Shown piece by piece: positions 51,419 to 64,000 of a DNA stretch of 64,000 bases; position 1 is the first letter of the stretch; the number at the start of each line of letters is the position of its first letter. The translations under genes were made by a program, and so were the position numbers. The stretch comes from Longimicrobiales bacterium (GTDB lineage: Bacteria; Gemmatimonadota; Gemmatimonadetes; Longimicrobiales; Gaopeijiaceae): NCBI GenBank assembly GCA_965248195.1, contig CBDFIQ010000002.1, forward strand, positions 2,784,001-2,848,000, written 5' to 3'. The notes under the pieces are model-generated. The model was not told the origin of the DNA, did not search any database, and saw nothing but the letters and a program-made list of their open reading frames with translations.

Positions 51419-52021
51419 ATGACTCCCCGAAACGCCACGATCGACCGCAAGACCAACGAGACCGAAATCAGCGTCACGCTCGAGCTGGACGGAACAGGCT
51501 CGTCGGATGCCCAGACGGGCATCGGCTTTCTCGACCACCTGCTCGACGCTCTCGTCCGCCACGGCCGATTCGACCTCGAGCTTCGCTGCAAGGGGGATCT
51601 CCAGGTCGACGACCACCACACCGCGGAGGATTGCGGCCTGGCACTGGGCAGCGCCCTCCAGAAGGCCCTCGGCGACCGCGTGGGAATCGCACGTTTCGGT
51701 TACGCCTACGCGCCCCTGGACGAGGCGCTCGCGCGAGCGGTCGTGGACATCTCCGGGCGTCCCTTCGCTGCCATCGACCTGGGCCTCACGCGCGAGCGCC
51801 TGGGGGAACTGTCGTGCGAGAACATTCCACACGTGCTGAGCTCCCTGGCCGCGGCGGCGGGCATCACCCTCCACGTCGACGTGCTCAGCGGCGACAACGA
51901 CCACCACCGCGCCGAGGCGGCCTTCAAGGCCGTGGCGCTCGCGCTCCGGGCAGCCGTGCGTGCGTCGGGTTTCGACGACGTCCCATCCACCAAAGGCACG
52001 ATCGGAGGCGTCGCCCCGTGA
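51419..52021 (+). CDS. hisB: Imidazoleglycerol-phosphate dehydratase, monofunctional
   Basis: RKTNET, TGIGFLDHLL, DDHHTAED, PLDEAL, NDHHRAEAAFKA, PSTKG. Confidence 0.97.
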   Translation: MTPRNATIDRKTNETEISVTLELDGTGSSDAQTGIGFLDHLLDALVRHGRFDLELRCKGDLQVDDHHTAEDCGLALGSALQKALGDRVGIARFGYAYAPLDEALARAVVDISGRPFAAIDLGLTRERLGELSCENIPHVLSSLAAAAGITLHVDVLSGDNDHHRAEAAFKAVALALRAAVRASGFDDVPSTKGTIGGVAP

Positions 52022-53517
52022 GCGATTCGAACGCAGAGCCTGCGCCGACGCCCGCAGAGTGCCACGTGGCGATCATCGACTCTGGGGTGGCCAACCTCGC
52101 GGCCGTCGAGAGCGCCCTGACGGCTCTGGGCGTCGAGTATTCGATCACCGGGGATCCGAAGGCCGTGCTGGAAGCCAGCCACGCGGTTCTGCCCGGCGTG
52201 GGGCGGTTTTCCGCCGGCCTCGAGACCCTTTGTCGTAATGGCCTCGACGAGGCGGTGCGCGAGGTGCACGAACGAGGGACACCGCTCCTCGCCGTCTGCC
52301 TGGGCATGCAGATGCTCGGAGCCGGGAGTGACGAGAGCCCGGACACACTGGGACTCGGCATCGTCTCCGGCCGGTTCCAGCGCTTGCCCGACTCGGTACG
52401 CGTACCCCATCTGGGGTGGAATCAGGTGAGCGCCGATGAGGGCTCCGGCCTCCCGAGCGGTACGGCCGCCTTCGCCAATTCGTTCTACTTGCCGGAGGCT
52501 CCCAGCGGGTGGGACGCCGCCTGGACGACTCACGGAGCGACGTTCGTTTCGATGCTCGCCCAGGGACGGACTCTCGCGTGCCAGTTCCACCCGGAGCTCT
52601 CCGGACCATTCGGCATGGGGCTCATCCAGGACTGGCTCAGAGGAAAGCTTCCGGTGCGGGTAGATCCTGGCTCCGGCGCGGGCGCAAGCGATCCCGCCAC
52701 TACGGCCAAAATCGGCCACGGAAGCCCGGCCCCGGACGAGGGCAACGACCGCACCGTGTGGCGCGAGGTCGCGCCCCGGATCGTCCCTTGTCTCGATGTG
52801 AAGGACGGGAGGGTGGTGAAGGGCATCCGCTTCCAGAACCTCCGAGACGCGGGTGATCCGGCCGACCAGGCCGGAGAGTACGAACGCCAAGGGGCGGACG
52901 AGATCGTCATTCTCGACATCGGGGCCTCCGCCGAGGCGCGCGAAACGCAACGTGAAACGGTGCGCGCCGTGCGCCGGCGCATCCACATCCCGCTCACAGT
53001 AGGCGGCGGCGTCCGAACCGTAGACGACGCGCGGGGCCTTCTGGCTGCAGGCGCCGACAAAGTGAGTGTCAACACGGCCGCCGTCCGGGATCCGAGCCTT
53101 CTGGAGCGGTTGAGCCAGGCATTCGGCACACAGTGTGTGGTGTTGGCCATCGACGCACGCCGATTGGGCGACAGTTGGGACACCCTGGTCGTGGGCGGGA
53201 GGGAGGCGACGGGTATCGACGCGATCGAGTGGGGACGCGAGGGCACGCGCCTCGGGGCCGGCGAGATCCTGCTCACGAGTTGGGATCGGGACGGGACCCG
53301 CGCCGGCTGCGACGTGGAGTTGCTCGAAGCCATGCGCGAGGCGGTGGATGTGCCGGTCATCGCATCCGGCGGCATCGGCACGCCGGACGACGTGGCCACA
53401 GCATTCCGAGCCGGTGCCGATGCCGTCTTGGCCGCCTCGGTCTTTCATGACGGAGACCTCACGGTCGGGCAGATCAAGACTTACGTATCAGAGCAAGGAC
53501 TGGCAGTGCGCCCATGA
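52018..53517 (+). CDS. hisHF: Fused imidazole glycerol phosphate synthase HisH-HisF
   Basis: GTG start overlaps the hisB stop. LPGVG, CLGMQ, VPHLGWN, QFHPE; about 40-aa linker; RIVPCLDV…VVKG, GADE, PLTVGGG, DRDGT, IASGG. Confidence 0.93.
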   Translation: MSDSNAEPAPTPAECHVAIIDSGVANLAAVESALTALGVEYSITGDPKAVLEASHAVLPGVGRFSAGLETLCRNGLDEAVREVHERGTPLLAVCLGMQMLGAGSDESPDTLGLGIVSGRFQRLPDSVRVPHLGWNQVSADEGSGLPSGTAAFANSFYLPEAPSGWDAAWTTHGATFVSMLAQGRTLACQFHPELSGPFGMGLIQDWLRGKLPVRVDPGSGAGASDPATTAKIGHGSPAPDEGNDRTVWREVAPRIVPCLDVKDGRVVKGIRFQNLRDAGDPADQAGEYERQGADEIVILDIGASAEARETQRETVRAVRRRIHIPLTVGGGVRTVDDARGLLAAGADKVSVNTAAVRDPSLLERLSQAFGTQCVVLAIDARRLGDSWDTLVVGGREATGIDAIEWGREGTRLGAGEILLTSWDRDGTRAGCDVELLEAMREAVDVPVIASGGIGTPDDVATAFRAGADAVLAASVFHDGDLTVGQIKTYVSEQGLAVRP

Positions 53518-54893
53518 TCATTCCCAGCATCGACCTCATGGATGGACGCGCGGTTCAGCTGCGCCGAGGTAAGGAGTTCGTCCTCGACGGAGGCGATCCG
53601 TTCGAGCGGCTCGAGGAGTTCTCCGTGGCGGGCGAGGTCGCGGTCGTCGACTTGGATGCAGCCATGGGAAAAGGATCCAACGCCCCGATCATTCGCGAGT
53701 TGGTCCGGCAGGCGCCTTGCCGCGTCGGTGGCGGGATCCGGGATATCGACACTGCTCTGGCGTGGCTGGACGTCGGCGCGGAACACGTGGTCATCGGAAC
53801 AGCCGCGTCCGTGGAGTTCTGCTCGCTGCTGCCTCGGGATCGGGTCATCGCCGCCGTCGACGCCGAGGCTGGCAGGGTGGTCGTGGAGGGTTGGCAGACC
53901 AAGACCGAACACGGCGTGATCGATCGCATTCAAGAATTGTCACCGGTCGTGGGTGGCTTCCTGCTGACGCAGGTGGAGTATGAGGGGGGTATGTCGGGCT
54001 GGAACGAAGATCTGGTCGGCCAGGCCGTGCAGGCGGCTGGCTCGGTCCGGATCACAGCAGCGGGAGGGATCACCACGGCCGAAGATGTGGGTCGGCTGGA
54101 TCAACTCGGTGCGGACGCCCAAGTGGGGATGGCGCTCTATACGAACCGCATGAGCCTGGGTGAGGCGGTCGGCGCCCCCTTGGTCAAGGCGATCGACGGA
54201 CGACTCTGGCCCACTGTCGTGTGCGATGAAGAGGGGCACGCCCTCGGGCTGGTGTGGAGTACACGTGAGAGCCTCGAGGCGGCGGTGCGGGAACGGCGGG
54301 GAATCTACTGGTCCCGCTCCCGAGATTCGCTCTGGATCAAGGGAGAGACCTCCGGGGCAACCCAGGAGCTGCTTCGCGTGGAGTTGGACTGCGACCGCGA
54401 CGCTCTCCGCTTCGTCGTTCGCCAGCAGGGCTCCGGCTTCTGCCACACGGGAACCCCCGGGTGCTGGCCGACCCCTTTTACGCTCTCTACGCTCTCGGAC
54501 GTCATCGCACGTCGTGGCCAGGAGGCTCCGGAGGGATCAGGGACGGCCAAACTCATGGGAGATCCGGCTCTTCTCGCGTCGAAACTCCGCGAAGAGACGG
54601 AGGAACTGATCCAGGCTCTTCAGACCGACAGAACCGGAGGTGGGACCTCGGACAAGGACGACGCCAGTACCGTGGATGAGGATGGTGCTGGACCCTCGGA
54701 TAAGGACGACGCCGAAAGCGAAGGCGCGAGTGAAGTGATCCACGAGGCGGCCGACCTTCTCTACTTCACGCTCGTCGCCGCCTCGAACCATGGCGCCGGT
54801 GTCGATGCACTCCGCCGTGAACTGGCTCGACGAAACCTCCGGGTTCGGCGGCGGCCGATGACGGCGAAGCCCGACGAGGGAGGGGATCGATGA
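53514..54893 (+). CDS. hisA: Fused HisA-HisI-HisE (ProFAR isomerase / PR-AMP cyclohydrolase / PR-ATP pyrophosphatase)
   Basis: IIPSIDL..GRAVQL, VGGGIR, AAGGI; YWSRSR..WIKGETSG, DCDRD, CHTG; KLREE, EAADLLY. Confidence 0.9.
   Translation: MIIPSIDLMDGRAVQLRRGKEFVLDGGDPFERLEEFSVAGEVAVVDLDAAMGKGSNAPIIRELVRQAPCRVGGGIRDIDTALAWLDVGAEHVVIGTAASVEFCSLLPRDRVIAAVDAEAGRVVVEGWQTKTEHGVIDRIQELSPVVGGFLLTQVEYEGGMSGWNEDLVGQAVQAAGSVRITAAGGITTAEDVGRLDQLGADAQVGMALYTNRMSLGEAVGAPLVKAIDGRLWPTVVCDEEGHALGLVWSTRESLEAAVRERRGIYWSRSRDSLWIKGETSGATQELLRVELDCDRDALRFVVRQQGSGFCHTGTPGCWPTPFTLSTLSDVIARRGQEAPEGSGTAKLMGDPALLASKLREETEELIQALQTDRTGGGTSDKDDASTVDEDGAGPSDKDDAESEGASEVIHEAADLLYFTLVAASNHGAGVDALRRELARRNLRVRRRPMTAKPDEGGDR
54646..54713 (+). 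repeat. 20-bp direct repeat (19/20 identical, 48-bp period) inside the HisE domain
   Basis: CCTCGGACAAGGACGACGCC at 54646 and CCTCGGATAAGGACGACGCC at 54694; encodes SDKDDA twice. Confidence 0.85.
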
Positions 54894-56223: not shown

Positions 56224-57606
56224 CTAGCGATTGTCGCCCTGGTCGTCGTCGGCCGCCGGGCGTGCCTCCCTCGCCGCGACCTGCCTCTCGAACTCATCCT
56301 GTTCCAGATAGGTCACGTCCACCCAGGCGTGGGCCATTTCATCGACCGTCCGGTCCCCATATCCGACCCACTGACGCGAGTCCGGGTTGTTGGGATTCGA
56401 CTCGGTATTATCGTGCCACGCCGTGAACACGAGCGTCGTGCCCTTGGGAAGCAAAGGAGCCACGTCCTCTTCGTAGACGTAGTTCACGTGCCAATTCCAC
56501 TGGAAGTTGTCGACCGAACTCAGTAATTCTTTGCGGCCATCCGGGTAGATCGCCTCCATGGACATCGCCTTGCCGCGCATGTGCATGTGCGGCTGGAAGT
56601 TCTCCAGACGCCCAGGCGCTTGCATCACATGGAAGTTCTGCGTCACGCTCACCTGCCCCGGAGGAATGTCGAGCTCCTCACCGACCGCCTGGAATAAATT
56701 CAGAACCGTGCGGTTTTCCGGTACGTAGCCCTCGGGGTAGAAGTACACCCCGAGCTCGACCACGTTGTCCCTCACCTCTTCGCCGATCGCGTGCATGTGG
56801 ATCTCCCAACTGATCTGGGAGCCCGGCAGCATCAGCTTACCGGCGTCCGCCGGGAAGACCTCTCCGACCTTACCCACTGCCCACTCCATGAACAGCACGG
56901 CACCCACGCCCGGACCGCCTTGGATGGCGGCCGCTGTGCTCGCGAGGCCCGCCATCCCGCCCTCTTCCCGCTGAAGGAGGAAAGCGAGCGCGTGGTGCAC
57001 GATCTTCCGTCCGTCCGGATACGCCGGCTTCATCTCGATCGCACGCACCCAACGAGGCTCCGTGATCCCGCTGGGAACCGTGGGACGGAACCACTTGTCC
57101 TGAGTTACCGCCGCCAGCGTGTACGGCTCGGACCGAATGATCAGGTCCGGCTCACCGAAACGATCCGCCAGCTGCCAACGGTTCGGATCCGGGAACTCCA
57201 TAGGCGCCGGCTCGTCTGCCGCGTCACCGTACACCGCGCCCTGGTCCACCCAACCCACGATCGTCTCGATCTGTTCGTCCGTCAGGCCACGATCGTTCTT
57301 GAAGCCCTGGATTCCCACGGTACGGTTGATGTGGTACGGAGGCATTATGCGGCTCTCGACCTTGATCTTGATCAGCGGAGCGTACGTCCGCACCTGCTCA
57401 TACGTCAGCAACGACATGGGTGCCACCGAGTTCGGCTGATGACAGATCTGGCACTTCTCCTGCAGGATCGGCGCCACGTCCCGCACGTATGTGACCTGTT
57501 CGCCGGCATCCTGCGCCGGGAGTTCCGCCGCCGGCGAGGCGACCATGGCCATCACTCCGAACGTAATACCGCTCAAGAGCACTCGGCTGATTCTCGTCTC
57601 TGTCAT
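56224..57606 (-). CDS. Cytochrome c domain fused to a copper type II (PHM-like) monooxygenase, copy 3
   Basis: CQICH, MPPY, VHH, EIH, PHMHMRGK, FQWNWH, DEMAH. Confidence 0.82.
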   Translation of the reverse strand: MTETRISRVLLSGITFGVMAMVASPAAELPAQDAGEQVTYVRDVAPILQEKCQICHQPNSVAPMSLLTYEQVRTYAPLIKIKVESRIMPPYHINRTVGIQGFKNDRGLTDEQIETIVGWVDQGAVYGDAADEPAPMEFPDPNRWQLADRFGEPDLIIRSEPYTLAAVTQDKWFRPTVPSGITEPRWVRAIEMKPAYPDGRKIVHHALAFLLQREEGGMAGLASTAAAIQGGPGVGAVLFMEWAVGKVGEVFPADAGKLMLPGSQISWEIHMHAIGEEVRDNVVELGVYFYPEGYVPENRTVLNLFQAVGEELDIPPGQVSVTQNFHVMQAPGRLENFQPHMHMRGKAMSMEAIYPDGRKELLSSVDNFQWNWHVNYVYEEDVAPLLPKGTTLVFTAWHDNTESNPNNPDSRQWVGYGDRTVDEMAHAWVDVTYLEQDEFERQVAAREARPAADDDQGDNR

Positions 57607-57629
57607 GAGTCCAATCCCTATTTTCGTAT

Positions 57630-58490
57630 TCACGGGTTGACGGATACCCTCACGAAACCGTTGGACCAGCAGCACTGAGAATGCCCAGCGCCGGCGACCC
57701 CCGAGGAATCGGTGGCACGGATACGTATAACATACTGTCCCGGAGTTTCGAAGCTCACGCTGTTCACGATCGAAACCTCCGCATCGCTGACTCGATGACT
57801 TGCCTCACCGAACGTGACGTCGCCCGGTCCCTGATGCTTGAACCACGTCAGCGTCGCGAGCGTGCTTCGTGTGCCGCCGCGGGAGAACCCGCCGAGTCTC
57901 CGCCCCTTGCCGTCGTCGTTCGCGTACACCGTGATGTCCACGGGCTCGCCCACCGAGGTGCGAAGCGGACCATAGACGATGCCCGATGCTCCGGGGCCCC
58001 TCACCTCCGGGCCGCCTTGCACGAATTGAAGCACCGGGGGCGTGTTGTCATGCGCCCCTTCATGCAGCGCGTCGATCTTCCAATCAGGGTGCAGGTGGCC
58101 CGGAACCATGAAAGTCTGTCCCTTCATCTTCAGAGTCCACGTCACCTCCTGGTCCCCATAATCCCCGGGGACGCGCACAGCGAACGTGCCCCAGTGGCGA
58201 CCCTCCTCGAAGCGCGTCGGCTGATTCTGTGCCAGACCCGCAGGTTCGATCATGTTGTCGGAGCCGAGCGGAATCTCGAGGACTTCTCCCGTATTCCGGT
58301 TGTAGTAGCCGAACGAAAGGCTGTACGTCCCGTCGGCGTTCTCATACCAGCCCTCGTAAGCCGGCGTCACCGTCCGCCCGGTCGCGCTACTCGGCGGCAG
58401 CGGTATCTGTTGTATAGCTGAGATCGGGCCGCCCACCAGGAGCGCGAGCGCAAAGCCGAGACCGTACGTGATTTTTCGTCTTCCTCGCAC
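57630..58490 (-). CDS. Exported hypothetical protein, 'EGW..N.DG…CCWxN' family, copy 2
   Basis: PAYEGWYENADGTYSLSFGYYNRN, WFKHQGPGDV, QCCWSNG. Confidence 0.85.
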   Translation of the reverse strand: MRGRRKITYGLGFALALLVGGPISAIQQIPLPPSSATGRTVTPAYEGWYENADGTYSLSFGYYNRNTGEVLEIPLGSDNMIEPAGLAQNQPTRFEEGRHWGTFAVRVPGDYGDQEVTWTLKMKGQTFMVPGHLHPDWKIDALHEGAHDNTPPVLQFVQGGPEVRGPGASGIVYGPLRTSVGEPVDITVYANDDGKGRRLGGFSRGGTRSTLATLTWFKHQGPGDVTFGEASHRVSDAEVSIVNSVSFETPGQYVIRIRATDSSGVAGAGHSQCCWSNGFVRVSVNP

Positions 58491-58779
58491 GAGTCGCTCC
58501 TTGGATCACGGGCGCACGCGACATGAGGGGCGGCGGGATGGCGCGCCCTCCGTGGATCGGGCCCAAAATTTCTCATCGCCACGCCCATCGCGCAAGCGAA
58601 AGACCACGGTACTAAGCTTCTACATCCGCTTGCAGCCCTTCGACGTGCTGAAGGCTCTTCTTGGTTCGGGCAGAGAGGACCCGACGATCCTCCTCGTCCC
58701 CCCCGCCGATGATAGAACGATGATACCCACTGATTAGGGTGATCACTCACGACGCTCACTCTAACCAGGAGTCTTATTG

Positions 58780-58968
58780 ATGACGACTTTGACGCTGGAC
58801 GCGATGCGGACGCTCCACGGGGCCGTGATCCCGAGACGAAGAAGAGGGGCATACTGTGGGTTCCTGGTAGGTGCCTTGGCGATGGCCCTTCTAACGGGAA
58901 ATCTGGTCGCCGCCGCGGCTGTCTACACGTTCACACCCGTTACGTGTCTCTTCGATTACGCGATGTAA
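58780..58968 (+). CDS. Putative double-glycine-leader precursor peptide A (15-aa leader ending GA, 47-aa core)
   Basis: AGGAG RBS at 58767; leader MTTLTLDAMRTLHGA; hydrophobic core with C-x29-C; C39 transporter downstream. Confidence 0.8.
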   Translation: MTTLTLDAMRTLHGAVIPRRRRGAYCGFLVGALAMALLTGNLVAAAAVYTFTPVTCLFDYAM

Positions 58969-59017
58969 CGGCCCGGAACAGACACCATGATTCACTTTCA
59001 CCATGAGGATCAGGTCC

Positions 59018-59212
59018 ATGCGAGAGCTTACGATACGTCAAATGTCCGAAGCGGATGGGGGGATAGGTTTCAGAGGCGGCTTCTTTAGGGGGTTTCTTTG
59101 CGGCGCGGCGCTCTTCGCTGCGTTCGCGATCACCCCGACTACCAGTGGGCTCGCACGAGCGGTCATCTATACCACAGCGATAGGAGTCTGTGGCAACGCC
59201 TTTGCCGTCTAG
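59018..59212 (+). CDS. Putative double-glycine-leader precursor peptide B (15-aa leader ending GG, 49-aa core)
   Basis: GAGGA RBS at 59005; leader MRELTIRQMSEADGG; hydrophobic core with C-x29-C. Confidence 0.85.
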   Translation: MRELTIRQMSEADGGIGFRGGFFRGFLCGAALFAAFAITPTTSGLARAVIYTTAIGVCGNAFAV

Positions 59213-59218
59213 CAGGTC

Positions 59219-59249
59219 GGGGGCCGGGTCCGTCGGGCACCCGGCCCCC
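59219..59249 (+). terminator. 11-bp GC hairpin just after the precursor genes; partial terminator or mRNA stabiliser
   Basis: GGGGGCCGGGT-ccgtcgggc-ACCCGGCCCCC; only a weak pyrimidine tail. Confidence 0.6.
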
Positions 59250-59302
59250 TTCCCTGCGGGCTAAGCCATGAATCTTCCGACCACTTCAAGTTGCGACGTC
59301 CG

Positions 59303-60934
59303 ATGAGTACCGCATACAGCAACCTGATTCTGGTCACCCGGGTCAAGCTTCGCATCGTGTGGCGCGAATTCGTCCACAGCGTACACACAACGTTCGAGGG
59401 CAAGTTCGCCGTCGCAGCCATGGTCGCGGCTCCTTTCTTGATGAAGAGTATGTTGGTCTCGAGTGCCCTCCGGCAGGCGAACTTGAGCGAGGACGCCGGA
59501 TGGGTCGTCCTGTGGACCGCCCACCTCTCAATGATGGCAGCGGCCGTTTCGGCCGTCGCCGCCCGGACGGCACGCTCCCTCATCGTGTGCCGACGCGACG
59601 ACTCGCTCGCTCAATACCCCCACGCGAGGCGGGGTCTAGCAGCCTTTCATCTGTGGGGAGAGATCGTGGCCGCCATGGCACTCCCAATCTTCGGCTTCTT
59701 CTACGTGTTCTATGGTGCTTTGGTGAGCAAACTTACGGCGCACCCCGTCATGGGGACGCACCTCCACGTGATCGCGCACGCCGTCGTTTCCCTGGCCCTG
59801 GGAGCGGTGGCGTACCGGCTCACGCTACGCTCGCTCGAGCGGCGACCGACCTGGGGACCAGCGATTTTCCACCTAAGCACGCTCCTCGCTATGTTCGCCT
59901 TCGTCGGGATGGTGGGGGGCCCCCAGTTGCTGCTGGATTTCGCTCCCGATCGAATCGATGAGCTCCGATCGTTCTTCATGGGAGCCGGGCGGTTCTACCC
60001 GCCCGTCACAGCCCTGCTTGGGTCAGCGGTGCGGCCGGGGCCACTATTGGGCTGGTTGATCGGGGTCGGGGTGGCAGGAGCGATCGCCATCGGTGCGGCG
60101 GCGCCTCTCGTTCAGACGCCAAGCACCCTCTTGCTCGGAGAGGTCGAAGGCCCGGTAAATCGTCGTTTCAAGAGCGTTTTTGGGGGTCGGAAACGTATGT
60201 CGACCCACCGAGTGGTTCACGGTGCTCGAATGTTCTTCTTGAAGGACGTCCTCCTAGCCACGGTCCGTTCCCCTCAGGCGTTCATCAGGCGGCAGGGCCT
60301 ATTCCTCGGCACGGTGGGCTTGGCTTCCTACCTGGCCTGGGGGCTCCTTCAGGAGGGCCTCATAGGGGAAACCGAAGCCGAGGCCCTCGTTTTGGGTCTG
60401 GTGGTCTTCCTGGTCTGTGCGGCGGCATATCTCCGAGGACTCGGCTCCCTCGGATCGGAGGGCCCGGCGTTGGCGCTGCTTCGCCCCGTCGTGCGGCCCT
60501 CCGATCTGATGGGCTACAAAACGGTCGCCGCGTTGGCTTCCGTCGTGCCCGCTGGACTCGTGTACGCCGCCGCCGCCGGGGCGCTATCCCAAGCCCTGGA
60601 CATGAGACCCGGTCCAGTGGTCACGGCAGGAATCGGGGGTCTCACAGCCGTGGTTGCGGCCGCATTCGCGGTCTCATTGGCCTTTCTTTTCCCGGACTTC
60701 GAGCGGCGAAACGCTCTCGTGCCCGGCGCCTCGCGAATGGGGAGATACACCTTCATTTCGGCCGCCCTCTACGGCGCTGGAGTCGTCGCGGGTCTCCGGT
60801 GGATGACACGATCGGGGATGCTCGCATCGAGCATGTTCGTCCCGAGCCTCATGACGACGGCCGGAGTGGGGATGGCCTTGACGGTAGTCTTGATGACGTT
60901 GGCTCTTCGCCGATTCCCTCACCTGGAGTACTGA
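59303..60934 (+). CDS. Multi-pass ABC exporter permease; candidate immunity or export component
   Basis: About 12 hydrophobic segments in two halves; FFLKD and 'LGSEG.ALALLR..V…K' patterns typical of ABC-2-like permeases; adjacent ATPase. Confidence 0.75.
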   Translation: MSTAYSNLILVTRVKLRIVWREFVHSVHTTFEGKFAVAAMVAAPFLMKSMLVSSALRQANLSEDAGWVVLWTAHLSMMAAAVSAVAARTARSLIVCRRDDSLAQYPHARRGLAAFHLWGEIVAAMALPIFGFFYVFYGALVSKLTAHPVMGTHLHVIAHAVVSLALGAVAYRLTLRSLERRPTWGPAIFHLSTLLAMFAFVGMVGGPQLLLDFAPDRIDELRSFFMGAGRFYPPVTALLGSAVRPGPLLGWLIGVGVAGAIAIGAAAPLVQTPSTLLLGEVEGPVNRRFKSVFGGRKRMSTHRVVHGARMFFLKDVLLATVRSPQAFIRRQGLFLGTVGLASYLAWGLLQEGLIGETEAEALVLGLVVFLVCAAAYLRGLGSLGSEGPALALLRPVVRPSDLMGYKTVAALASVVPAGLVYAAAAGALSQALDMRPGPVVTAGIGGLTAVVAAAFAVSLAFLFPDFERRNALVPGASRMGRYTFISAALYGAGVVAGLRWMTRSGMLASSMFVPSLMTTAGVGMALTVVLMTLALRRFPHLEY

Positions 60935-60947
60935 CTGGAGTACCGAA

Positions 60948-61709
60948 ATGAGCGAGACGCCTCACATCAGCGTGGACGCGCTCACCAAGCGCTTCGGAGC
61001 GATCACTGCCGTGGCCGACCTCAGCTTGTCGCTCGAGGCGGGTCAGATCGTGGGCCTCCTCGGCCCCAATGGGGCCGGCAAGACCACGACCCTCAACACC
61101 ATCATGGGCCTGAAAACGCCCACATCAGGCGACGTGCGTATCAACCGCGTGAGCGTGCAATCGCCTGAGATCGCGTCGGTGAGGCGCGGAATCGGGTACC
61201 TGCCCGAACAACCGGTGTTGTACGACTATCTGACCGGCCGGGAGTTCGTCCAATTCCTAGGGCAGCTCTACGACGCCGCCTTGGACCTCGATGACTGGCT
61301 TACCGACAACCTCGACGCCCTCGAAATGGGCCAAGACGCTGATCGCTTGATCCGGACATACTCGTTGGGCATGCGCAAGAAGATCGCGTTCCTGGCGGCC
61401 ATGGTGCACCGGCCGAACATCCTGATCTTCGACGAGCCGACCGGCGCGCTGGATGCGGCGAGCGCCAGAGTGGTCAAAGACCAAATGCAGATCGCACGTG
61501 ATGGCGGGGCTCTCGTCCTGTTCACGACTCATGTCATGGAGATCGCGGAGCGCCTCGCCGATCGAATCGCGATCCTCAATCACGGCAGTTTGGTAGCGGA
61601 CGGAACGTTGAAAGAGATCAAGGAAGCGCACGCACGTTCCGGGCGTGATACCCTCGAGGAGATCTTCCTCAGGCTCACGGCTTCGCAGCCGGAGCACACA
61701 TCAAGATGA
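60948..61709 (+). CDS. ABC transporter ATP-binding protein
   Basis: GPNGAGKTT, YSLGMRKK signature, IFDEPT, TTH. Confidence 0.95.
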   Translation: MSETPHISVDALTKRFGAITAVADLSLSLEAGQIVGLLGPNGAGKTTTLNTIMGLKTPTSGDVRINRVSVQSPEIASVRRGIGYLPEQPVLYDYLTGREFVQFLGQLYDAALDLDDWLTDNLDALEMGQDADRLIRTYSLGMRKKIAFLAAMVHRPNILIFDEPTGALDAASARVVKDQMQIARDGGALVLFTTHVMEIAERLADRIAILNHGSLVADGTLKEIKEAHARSGRDTLEEIFLRLTASQPEHTSR

Positions 61710-63768
61710 GAGGACGGACCCGATCGTGGATGCGATTCCTCGGATTCGCGCCCCGCTACCCGGTGGTTCGGCAATACGACCGTGTCGACTGCGGCCCCGC
61801 CTGCCTCCTCGCCGTCCTTCGATTCCACGGCGGCGACGCCGGACTGGCACCGGTTCGCTCTGCAGCCGGGACGGATGCAAGCGGAACCAGCCTCCTCGGG
61901 CTCTACCAGGCCGCGGACACGCTCGGATTCGATGCGAGAGGCGCGACGGGAGATTACGAGTCCCTGAGGAATGTGAAGCTACCCTGCATCGCACACGTCG
62001 TCGTCGAGGACGGCCCCCACTACGTGGTGGTCTATGAGGCGGGAGAACACGAGCTCAGGGTGGCGGACCCAGCGCGCGGGCTGGTTCGGCTGACTCGTAC
62101 CGAATTCGAGCGAATCTGGGTGCAGGGCGCGGTGCTTCTCCTCGACCCCGGCCCGGAGCTTCACTCCGCGCCGCCCCCCCATTGGTTCCCATGGGTCCTG
62201 CGCCACTGCCGGGGAGCACAGGGATGGCTCGTACAATCCGTGTTCCTCGGACTGGTGTACACGGCTTTGGGGCTCGTGACGGCATTCGTGGTCCAGAGGC
62301 TCGTCGACGACTTCATTCCGGGTGGCCATGGGAACCGGATCATCGCGGCCGGAGGGATTCTGCTCGGACTACAGCTGATTCGGGCGATGGTGGGCTATCT
62401 GCGTCAACACTTCCTGGTCGGGCTCGGCAAGCGAGCGGCCACGGCCATCGCCCAGGAGTTCATCGAGCACCTCTTTTCTCTTCCATCCCGGTTCTTCGAC
62501 ACCCGGAAAAGAGGTGACATCGCGGCCCGCCTCCAGGACGCTTCCCAAGTTCAGAACGCGGTCCTCCAAATTCTGGGGAGCACAACCTATAGATGTCCTC
62601 GTCACCGTACTCTCACTCGGCGTCGTATTCCATTTCTCTGCCGAGATGGGGTGGGTCACACTTCTCCTGGTGCCGCCCTACGCCCTGGTGGCCAGTATGG
62701 TCGCCGCTCGGCTCCATCATGAACATCACGAGACGCTGGGAGCATACGGGCGGCTCCAAGGCTCCTACATCGACACGCTCGACGGTATCGAGGCGGTGCG
62801 GAGGACCGGGGCCACCGCGATCTTCTCGAAGGCCACGCTAGCCCTCTTCGGCATGTTCCAATCCAAAGTCGAGCGGCTCGGACACACGCAAGCCGCCGCC
62901 GTATCGAAGCTGGAAGCCGTGGGTGGAGTGTTCCTCACCGCTGTGCTGACTACTGGGGCCATGCTCGTGCCTCCAGCGAGTGACCGAGGGTTTCTTCACG
63001 CTTCAGGCCGGATCGGCGGCGGCCCAGCGGCTGCAGGACGTCTTGCTCACCCAGCCCGAACGGAACACCGGTACGAATAGTTTCCGGATGGAAAGGGAGT
63101 TGAGACTGGAGAACGCGACGTTCCAGTGGTCCCCCGACGAGCCTCTTCTTCAAGGCACGAATCTCACGCTCCAGCGGGGCAGGATCACCGGGCTGAGCGG
63201 GGCCAACGGCAGTGGCAAGAGTACGTTGATCCACCTCCTCAATCGCCGGTACCCACTCACCGAAGGAGTGCTCACGATAGACGGCGTGCCCGCCGAAGCG
63301 ATCGACCTTCACAGCTATCGCCGAAACGTGGCGCTCGTTCCTGAAGCGGTGAAAATCTTCAACGGCACGCTCGGAGCCAATCTCACGATGGCGGCCCCGG
63401 GCCTTCCGCACGAGGCCCTCTTGGAGCGCCTCCGTGAATTGTCCCTCGAATCGTTCCTGGGCCGTTTCAGAGCCGGCCTCGCCACCGAGGTGGGTGAAGA
63501 CGGCCGACGACTTTCCGCGGGGGAGCGTCAAATGATCGGTCTGGTTCGAGCCCTCTTCGGAAAGCCCGCGGTACTGATCGTAGACGAGGGGTTCAACGCG
63601 CTGGATCCGCAGGCCTTCGCACTTGCCGTGCGCCTGGTGAGGGCACAGGCTCGTAGCGGCGCCGTGCTGCTCGTCTCGCACGCTCAGCAGCTGATCTCCC
63701 TGGCGGACGAGCGCTTCATCCTGGAACGCGGAACCGTGCTCCCCGATACGCGCTCCAGGGCCGCATGA
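61706..63768 (+). CDS. Peptidase C39-containing ABC transporter (PCAT); frame breaks at about 62588 and about 62970
   Basis: QYDRVDCGPACL, GTSLLGL, LPCIAH, HYVVVY, VADPA (C39 domain); FFDTRKRGDI (TM domain); GANGSGKST, LSAGERQ, IVDE, VSH (NBD). Spread over three frames. Confidence 0.9.
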
Positions 63769-64000
63769 ACAAGCGGCTTCCCGACCATGAGGGCACCACG
63801 CGCCTGGGTACCCAATCGGTATGGCCGATGTTAGCCATCATGACTGCGATTTGGATGGCGCTTGCTCTCTACACCAATGAACGCGTGCTCACGCCTCAGG
63901 TATTGGCACATTTGGCCAGGCAGGGAGACGGCATGGCGATGCCGGCAGCTCAATTGGACAACCTCCAGCGTCTGGAATTGCTGTCTTATGGATTGTTACC
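63765..64000 (+). CDS. Membrane protein translationally coupled to the PCAT, truncated by the window edge
   Basis: ATGA overlap with the PCAT stop. Open to the window end: MNKRLPDHEGTTRLGTQSVWPMLAIMTAIWMALALYTNERVLTPQVLAHL…LELLSYGLL. Confidence 0.65.
   Translation, partial: MNKRLPDHEGTTRLGTQSVWPMLAIMTAIWMALALYTNERVLTPQVLAHLARQGDGMAMPAAQLDNLQRLELLSYGLL

Follow-up and report, generated by a model that had tools for sequence, protein, structure and literature searches.

Two-peptide bacteriocins of the gallocin A group (gallocin A, thermophilin 13, brochocin C, ABP-118) are encoded by adjacent pairs of double-glycine precursors with long, weakly charged cores and are exported by ATP-binding cassette (ABC) transporters that contain a peptidase, or PCATs (PMC10100652; here and below, statements on published systems refer to the available portions of the cited sources). 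These features, with export as a prediction, are shared by a six-gene cassette at the end of a 64,000-nucleotide stretch of a Longimicrobiales bacterium genome (Gemmatimonadota; GenBank assembly GCA_965248195.1, contig CBDFIQ010000002.1, positions 2,784,001 to 2,848,000 of the forward strand), hereafter the window. Its genes encode two peptides (A and B), a permease of the fused type V ABC kind with its ATPase, a C39 PCAT and a membrane protein that is Yip1-like. The cassette was first noticed in a prediction made from the window's sequence alone (the original prediction). We favor a class IIb-like two-peptide bacteriocin whose peptides would form disulfide-closed hairpins, and assign this reading a probability of about 60%; its activity is predicted by analogy.

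As in the gallocin A group, two cysteines lie near the ends of each core, and a thioredoxin-like helper is found in some sister cassettes. The group differs in its Gram-positive Bacillota hosts, 23-residue leaders (gallocin A) and small immunity peptide (PMC10100652). Compared by description, the cassette has a diderm host, 15-residue leaders, no immunity peptide, and in addition a type V exporter and a Yip1-like protein. In the scheme proposed below it would work like a class IIb bacteriocin, although membership of that class is not established, given that there is no immunity gene and activity is predicted.

Three systems of diderm bacteria are also informative. Bacteroidetocin loci share with the cassette a host of the Fibrobacterota-Chlorobiota-Bacteroidota (FCB) group, a 15-residue leader, two or more cysteines, plus a PCAT with a five-transmembrane-type (five-TM) protein (putatively so in the cassette), with no adaptor in the four-gene region and no immunity gene (PMC6671954, PMC8546649). 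They differ in that they encode single peptides (bacteroidetocins A and B have four cysteines and 42 residues) and a thiol oxidoreductase, and in that self-intoxication occurs (PMC6671954, PMC8546649); the cassette has paired hairpin peptides, an extra ABC exporter and usually no oxidoreductase, which is found in the sister cassettes G125, G468 and G673. Caulobacter CdzCD likewise consists of two hydrophobic, GxxxG-rich peptides that may stay cell-associated, but it has a full type I system (CdzA, the adaptor CdzB and TolC), the immunity protein CdzI and glycine zippers of 84-86 residues (PMC5380434). Class II microcins are exported from Gram-negative bacteria by a PCAT and carry a double-glycine signal of 15-18 residues; unlike the cassette, they need a membrane fusion protein and TolC alongside the PCAT, consist of one peptide plus an immunity protein, and have signals ending in GG or GA (PMC12219008). 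A full-text literature search, whose scope excludes most subscription papers, returned no paper describing the cassette and none joining Yip1, bacteriocin and C39; the PCAT papers found there make no mention of Gemmatimonad-. An antiSMASH survey of marine Gemmatimonadota reports lasso, Nif11-type and "microcin" genes, with no such architecture in the available parts of the text (PMC11316326). Each module thus has a published precedent, and the combination and its host appear to be undescribed.

On comparative evidence, both small open reading frames (ORFs) are real genes. Peptide A is encoded on the forward strand at 58780-58968 (62 residues: a 15-residue leader and a 47-residue core; grand average of hydropathy [GRAVY] 0.96, charge +3) and peptide B, on the same strand, at 59018-59212 (64 residues: leader of 15, core of 49; GRAVY 1.17, charge +3). 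Purine-rich ribosome-binding sites precede the start codons, AGGAG for A and GAGG for B. As a control for chance, the leader pattern was found in 6 of 28,758 M-started ORFs of 40-100 residues genome-wide, of which only A and B also had a motif resembling a ribosome-binding site. Exactly two core cysteines 29 residues apart occurred in 31 of 13,049 ORFs of 50-75 residues, both peptides being among the carriers. A followed by B stands 5' of the permease in all 25 close loci, which comprise this genome, three congeners, four related loci and 17 metagenome loci; a handful duplicate one another, so that 23 distinct sequences remain for each peptide. The two tandem ORFs of the original prediction, with their ribosome-binding sites and 15-residue leaders, are therefore borne out, as is the conservation beside homologous PCATs that it had proposed as a check.

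The dN/dS ratio differs between the parts of these genes. Overall dN/dS is 0.54 for A and 0.60 for B; the pooled values are 0.36 (A) and 0.27 (B) for the leaders, and 0.59 (A) and 0.75 (B) for the cores. Among the partner genes the pooled ratio is 0.18 for the PCAT, 0.20 for the ATPase, 0.39 for the permease and 0.31 for the Yip1-like gene, and histidine biosynthesis (his) genes gave 0.13-0.15. All estimates come from four to 10 sequences per gene, and the sequence pairs are not independent. Cores that evolve fast relative to the PCAT and ATPase, together with the patchy presence and frequent decay described below, fit loci involved in competition.

The leaders count as C39-type because their conserved positions match the published recognition determinants, namely hydrophobic residues at -12, -7 and -4 and glycine at -2 (PMC6363468, PMC10885120). 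Across the 23 distinct close orthologues, A leaders always have L or M at -12, M at -7 and L at -4, with G at -2 in 20; B leaders always have L at -12, M at -7 and one of T, I, M, V or A at -4, with G at -2 in 22. The proposed fit to a double-glycine pattern beside a C39 PCAT thus extends to the orthologues. The further claim that leaders end in GG or GA is not supported as a family rule. In the window the endings are GA (A) and GG (B), but position -1 varies widely: GG, GA or GS ends 18/23 A leaders, 9/23 B leaders and 22 of 25 peptides from distant loci, 21 of these 25 ending specifically in GG. The remaining 14 B leaders carry R (5), T (3), K (2), M (2) or I (2) at -1, compared with two A leaders that are non-canonical at that position. 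A wider protein search gave 77 matches to B, of which 61 were inspected and 42 fitted the leader pattern; 28 of the 42 end other than in GG, GA or GS. Mining patterns that require G[GAS] consequently miss most B peptides of this clade. The loop before the catalytic histidine is shorter in PCATs from the clade whose -1 residues are odd; G707 combines a short loop with GG leaders, and the observation is a lead only.

The contrast at position -1 bears on a first alternative, in which only one of the peptides would be toxic and its partner would serve as a hairpin-shaped antidote or helper, exported or inserted in the membrane and not necessarily cleaved. The precedent is the gallocin A immunity peptide (GIP), which mimics the hairpin of the toxin (PMC10100652). 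The lack of a separate immunity gene is also in keeping with an antidote, as is the concentration of non-canonical residues in B. Against it stand the strong conservation of the B leaders, the GG endings that prevail in distant loci, and the loci that have two B-type or two A-type copies. We regard this alternative as unlikely.

The cores of the homologues are 43-54 residues long, hydrophobic and weakly charged, with a variable N-terminal part and a central Pro/Gly turn. That of A is hydrophobic, with the spacing C-x29-C and a central to late proline; that of B contains F-x-x-G-F-L-C-G, a central proline, a conserved arginine and C-x29-C. Both cysteines of A are invariant and 29 residues apart in all 23 distinct close orthologues, and 22/23 B orthologues have two cysteines at a spacing of 29, 32 or 36. 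From this spacing, the hydropathy and the central Pro/Gly we infer that each core would be closed by a disulfide into a helical hairpin. A permissive G/A/S pattern, applied with no chance control, finds four GxxxG-like motifs in A and five in B. Several homologues score weakly with the Bacteriocin_IIc model PF10439, at best 26.1 bits against a cut-off of 27.1.

A and B are distant paralogues (hhalign 91%, E 1e-6). A tree built from 46 peptides of 22 loci divides most deeply into A-type and B-type peptides; each of the 20 loci with the A/B layout is represented on both sides of this split, and in four of them B comes first. The two types thus seem to be retained together even where gene order is swapped, which gives comparative support to the class IIb-like reading of the original prediction. 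Prediction of a complex between core A and core B scored 0.02 against a mark of 0.32, which weighs neither way on binding. A second alternative treats the peptides as independent toxins that share an exporter, as bacteroidetocins or microcins do, possibly with an outer-membrane target such as BamA and with no joint pore. The export module resembles that of bacteroidetocin loci, where BamA is the target of single peptides (PMC6671954, PMC8546649), and the number of peptides in the sister cassettes G125, G515, G468 and G673 ranges from one to three, with no A/B pairing. Interchangeable cargo would not be expected to keep both types together across two families with swaps of order, and we consider independent toxins improbable here.

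The genome has a single PF03412 gene, that of the PCAT (61706-63768, forward strand; PF03412 at E 2e-31, PF00664, PF00005), and its nearest solved relative is PCAT1 (E 1e-28). It is spread over three pieces in different frames (61706-62722, 62514-63080 and 62980-63768), the first of which holds the catalytic motifs Q/C/H/D. In the congeners G001, G006 and G011 it is one intact gene of 2130 nucleotides encoding 709 residues. Relative to these, the gene in the window has gained one base near 62588 and lost 68 bp at 62968/62969, where the last transmembrane part is encoded. Run X1 yielded a short contig (depth 7.4) that differs nowhere else and crosses the insertion free of gaps, while contigs of runs X2 and X5 are without the extra base. 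A near-identical protein from another contig (P0388) keeps the segment deleted here, and no listed piece of the matching strain covers the deletion. Long-read error was considered as the sole cause of the breakage; the X1 contig carries the insertion, and no other gene of this genome was split among 25 compared stretches (one further two-frame row was due to a frameshifted query). As judged from assembled contigs rather than raw reads, the lesions probably reflect strain-level decay. Because this is the only PCAT of the genome, export by the cassette is probably inactive in it, and an intact system, as the original prediction implied, is not supported. Frameshifts, truncations, insertions and deletions are common in cassette genes elsewhere (G006, L014, L015, G197, G272, G626, G667, G662, G668, G010, G143 and L028-L030), and some of these defects may be assembly errors.

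The last gene of the operon (63765-64439, forward strand, in the window to 64000) encodes the Yip1-like membrane protein of 224 residues. Its language-model neighbors are mostly from Bacteroidota, with Yip1 annotated on 17% of one cluster. The Yip1 model PF04893 matches 6/39 distant homologues at 18-24 bits (cut-off 28.6) and does not match the window protein, which gives a weak YknW match (E 0.018). Its structural model is well predicted (predicted local distance difference test [pLDDT] 90), and fold searches with it yielded no Foldseek match at E <= 0.001 and a best Z of 6.6. The PCAT lies directly 5' of this gene in 23 of the 25 genomes with a strong match, the exceptions, G010 and G143, being truncated remnants. 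A Flammeovirga plasmid encodes a membrane protein that reaches 71 bits with the Yip1-like profile; genes for a redoxin, a PCAT and a peptide with a GG leader come after it, and no adaptor is annotated there. This gene set equals the published bacteroidetocin set of a five-TM protein, a peptide with a 15-residue leader, a thiol oxidoreductase and a PCAT. Deletion of the bacteroidetocin TM gene attenuates activity and the gene gives no immunity, while the report leaves open whether release needs lysis (PMC6671954). On a Flammeovirga pectinis plasmid (L113:9920-19994), genes for a Yip1-like TM protein, a redoxin, a PCAT and a 51-residue GG peptide precede genes annotated as GLPGLI, LanC-family and glycosyltransferase, possibly an uncharacterized modified-peptide cluster.

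As judged from its structural model, the permease is, with the ATPase, a second exporter. The permease gene (59303-60934, forward strand) encodes a polytopic protein of 543 residues, the membrane domain of a fused type V (ABC-2/ABCG-like) exporter. It has no Pfam or NCBIfam match, and its language-model neighbors in the Atlas are clusters of 12TM_1, ABC_tran_2 and ABC_export at 0.96. In its model (pLDDT 75; predicted template modeling score 0.51) the C-terminal half matches the folds of Cdr1 (Z 14.1; root-mean-square deviation [rmsd] 3.5, 222 aligned), ABCG1 (14.0), CcmB (13.7), NosY (13.7) and PmtCD (13.0; rmsd 3.9, 215 aligned). Foldseek found no match at E <= 0.001, and the N-terminal half was barely covered by the fold comparison. 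The partner ATPase (60948-61709, forward strand; 253 residues) matches PF00005 at E 1e-31; its best NCBIfam model is drrA-type, below the cut-off. The PmtCD exporter of Staphylococcus extracts hydrophobic peptides from the membrane and has a protective role for the cell, whereas AbcA acts in export from the cytosol (PMC9974410). The cassette has a similar pairing of two ABC exporters, one of them type V, for amphipathic peptides (PMC9974410), and a comparable division of labor between the permease/ATPase and the PCAT may apply, with the former plausibly serving as immunity. The phenol-soluble modulins of Staphylococcus are leaderless and the cassette permease is a fused two-half protein; likeness of fold does not show function.

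The gene order given in the original prediction stood in that permease, ATPase, C39 transporter and membrane gene are co-directional on the forward strand, except that the PCAT is not a single ORF. The operon does run past 64000 as expected, but only to 64439, where the Yip1-like gene ends; the next genes are on the opposite strand and encode a RoxA-like cytochrome c, a polyketide-cyclase-like protein and a TPR-like protein. Neither the operon nor these next genes include HlyD, TolC, a thioredoxin or oxidoreductase, or a modifying enzyme, so that the transport and Dsb components sought downstream are not there. A modified RiPP, the other option raised at the outset, is therefore not indicated. 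For LanM and YcaO the negative is limited to the operon and its neighbors, no genome-wide search having been made, and no ORF with a CxxxCxxC radical-SAM motif was found in 26 loci.

These observations bear on a further alternative, a RiPP modified or cyclized head-to-tail by an enzyme encoded in trans, or a peptide acylated by a pfa-like polyunsaturated fatty acid (PUFA) synthase. Yip1 proteins and ABC transporters do occur in circular-bacteriocin clusters, for which SpoIIM/DUF95 is defining (PMC8659200). SpoIIM/DUF95 (PF01944) was not found in the genome, which is 91.8% complete, nor was it matched by the cassette proteins, and the 26 loci are devoid of radical-SAM motif ORFs, as noted. Acylation draws on the pfaD-like gene that follows the cassette site in 13 of 29 Gemmatimonadota loci. 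In the other 16 it was not found, and in G010 the cassette is deleted while pfaD still adjoins the his genes; the linkage is thus one of chromosomal position. We consider modification or acylation highly improbable. The pfa-like PUFA synthase/polyketide synthase cluster itself lies about 4 kb downstream (L001:10324 onward; window-relative 68324-83336), with ORFs of 574, 2115 and 2312 residues; many Longimicrobiales have a pfaD-like gene after the cassette site.

Two noncoding elements flank the peptide genes. The first, at 58709-58779 on the forward strand, consists of a direct repeat (GATGATA-x4-GATGATA) and an imperfect inverted repeat, followed by the ribosome-binding site. It shows 79% mean column identity over 16 loci and is kept also where other flanking genes differ; it is a probable promoter or operator. 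It contains no match to the sigma-70 consensus, a promoter/terminator scan was at chance level, and no consensus RNA structure was supported (-2 kcal/mol). The second is a GC-rich hairpin (59219-59249, forward strand) in the gap between the peptide and transporter genes, with a folding energy of -37.8 kcal/mol (z -2.7 here, -2.3 in G001). It is mostly deleted in G011 and is a possible mRNA stabilizer or attenuator. Contigs of one RNA run cover 20 of 30 bins of the stretch and hardly the peptide genes, and transcription is not demonstrated by them.

The repeat element suggests regulation, and with it that the products could be signals or host-interaction or envelope peptides rather than antibacterials. 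PCATs export quorum peptides too (PMC6363468), and several holders of the sequence are runs labeled with organisms, not with free-living habitats. Against this reading, the cassettes examined share no conserved sensor kinase or regulator, and the long (43-54 residues), very hydrophobic cores with a second exporter are what would be expected of membrane-active cargo. In our judgment a signaling or host-directed role has only a slim chance of being correct.

Cassettes or their remnants were examined in 26 Gemmatimonadota genomes (overlaps counted once), including G006, which is without the Yip1-like gene. With a 114-row Yip1-like profile and 95 bits or more taken as strong, strong matches were found in 21 of 401 genomes of the order and four of 401 of the phylum, each with one further partial match. 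Weaker matches (about 20-55 bits) in many genomes were treated as generic Yip1 paralogues and left unopened. The layout of A and B with a fused permease and ATPase is present in 18 genomes, one with a frameshifted A. Closer to hand, the permease occurs in 4/61 relatives, all in this genus, and peptide A in 4/12 genus members. Since the genomes are kin and not independent, these counts are descriptions rather than statistics. The labeled runs that contain the stretch come from metagenomes of sediment or marine sediment, and others carry coded organism names. Searches of plasmids with the PCAT gave only generic PCATs, about 30% identical, and one with the Yip1-like protein of G197 gave no match.

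Sister cassettes vary in content. G125 has a thioredoxin-like gene and two peptides in a different gene order. G468 and G673 (L103, L105) combine an ABC ATPase, a single ABC-2 permease, a thioredoxin-like gene, four-cysteine peptides, a PCAT and a Yip1-like gene; their peptides are of a 50-residue GG type with the spacing C-x10-C-x7-C-x10-C, and the layout is closer to that of bacteroidetocin loci. For G515 the stretch covered contains no permease. At L097:11847-12629 its PCAT and Yip1-like gene are followed by three GG peptides of the C-x29-C type that score slightly below the cut-off of PF10439, and one more GG peptide, an orphan, lies about 5 kb away (L097, 17927). A tblastn search for HlyD, TolC and membrane fusion proteins (four queries, 31 loci) matched only the control locus. 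This locus, on a Phocaeicola plasmid, had been considered as a relative of the cassette and proved to be an ordinary HlyD-PCAT-TolC operon. Across the whole genome under study, the type I HlyD model TIGR01843 gave 11 weak matches, none over the cut-off.

In the mechanism that we propose for the two-peptide bacteriocin, the C39 domain would recognize A and B through the helix of the 15-residue leader and cleave after residue 15, and the PCAT would move both across the inner membrane. Either in the periplasm or outside, the cysteine pair of each core would then lock it into a helical hairpin, and A and B together would permeabilize the membrane of competing bacteria. The Yip1-like protein would act as a PCAT accessory needed for output, the place that HlyD holds in ordinary diderm PCAT loci being empty. 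The type V exporter would clear the hydrophobic peptides from the membrane of the producer, as self-protection, as a second export route or both. Because there is no adaptor or TolC, passage of the outer membrane would probably be indirect, by vesicles, lysis or surface retention. Retention is plausible by analogy with CdzCD, which stays on the cell surface (PMC5380434).

Several observations weigh against this reading. The antibacterial action of the peptides is a prediction, and the window peptides match no Pfam or NCBIfam bacteriocin model in profile searches. The odd -1 residues in 14/23 B leaders call the cleavage of B into question. The split between A and B is weakly supported (67/94, 59 columns), and the peptides of G125 and G515 all fall on one side of it, with no A/B pairing. 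This type of cassette contains no oxidoreductase, and neither DsbB nor VKOR was found in the 91.8% complete genome; five DSBA-family matches were. No small conserved ORF lies between the peptides and the permease to serve as a dedicated immunity gene, such as classical class IIb operons have (PMC2850506). Finally, the Yip1-like protein is likened to the five-TM protein of bacteroidetocin loci by description and layout, not by sequence.

Other genes near the cassette were also noted. A 525-residue RoxA-like di-heme cytochrome c (L001:6575-8152, reverse strand) directly follows the cassette only in this genome of the four congeners compared. The his genes of the window (51810-54893) include fusions, an HisH-HisF-like ORF (to 53517) and an HisA-HisI-HisE-like ORF (53514-54893), as labeled from their translations. 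Divergent from the cassette, on the reverse strand at 56224-58490, are two exported-looking proteins of 483 and 286 residues with no Pfam match over the cut-off; the pair is present in G001 and G006 and absent at this site in G011. The larger one carries His motifs that we take to be copper-monooxygenase-like.

A bolder extension of our reading, which we hold to be rather doubtful, is that hairpin bacteriocin pairs throughout the phylum leave a diderm cell without HlyD or TolC. It would involve an obligatory Yip1-like PCAT accessory of the same family as the bacteroidetocin five-TM protein, a fused type V exporter that handles membrane-inserted peptides, and a C39 peptidase that cuts after GR, GK, GM, GI or GT. 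Acceptance of large or charged P1 residues by C39 peptidases would, if true, have implications for protease tools and for genome mining that relies on leaders. The cassette makes two questions testable: first, PCAT export from a two-membrane cell free of adaptor and TolC, together with the role of the bacterial Yip1-like partner; second, the P1 tolerance of C39 peptidases. It also provides dozens of short, synthesizable peptide pairs that standard profiles miss. The copy present here is probably in decay. The two-peptide reading would, if true, carry the small disulfide-hairpin subgroup of class IIb bacteriocins beyond its Gram-positive hosts and into a diderm phylum that is largely uncultured.

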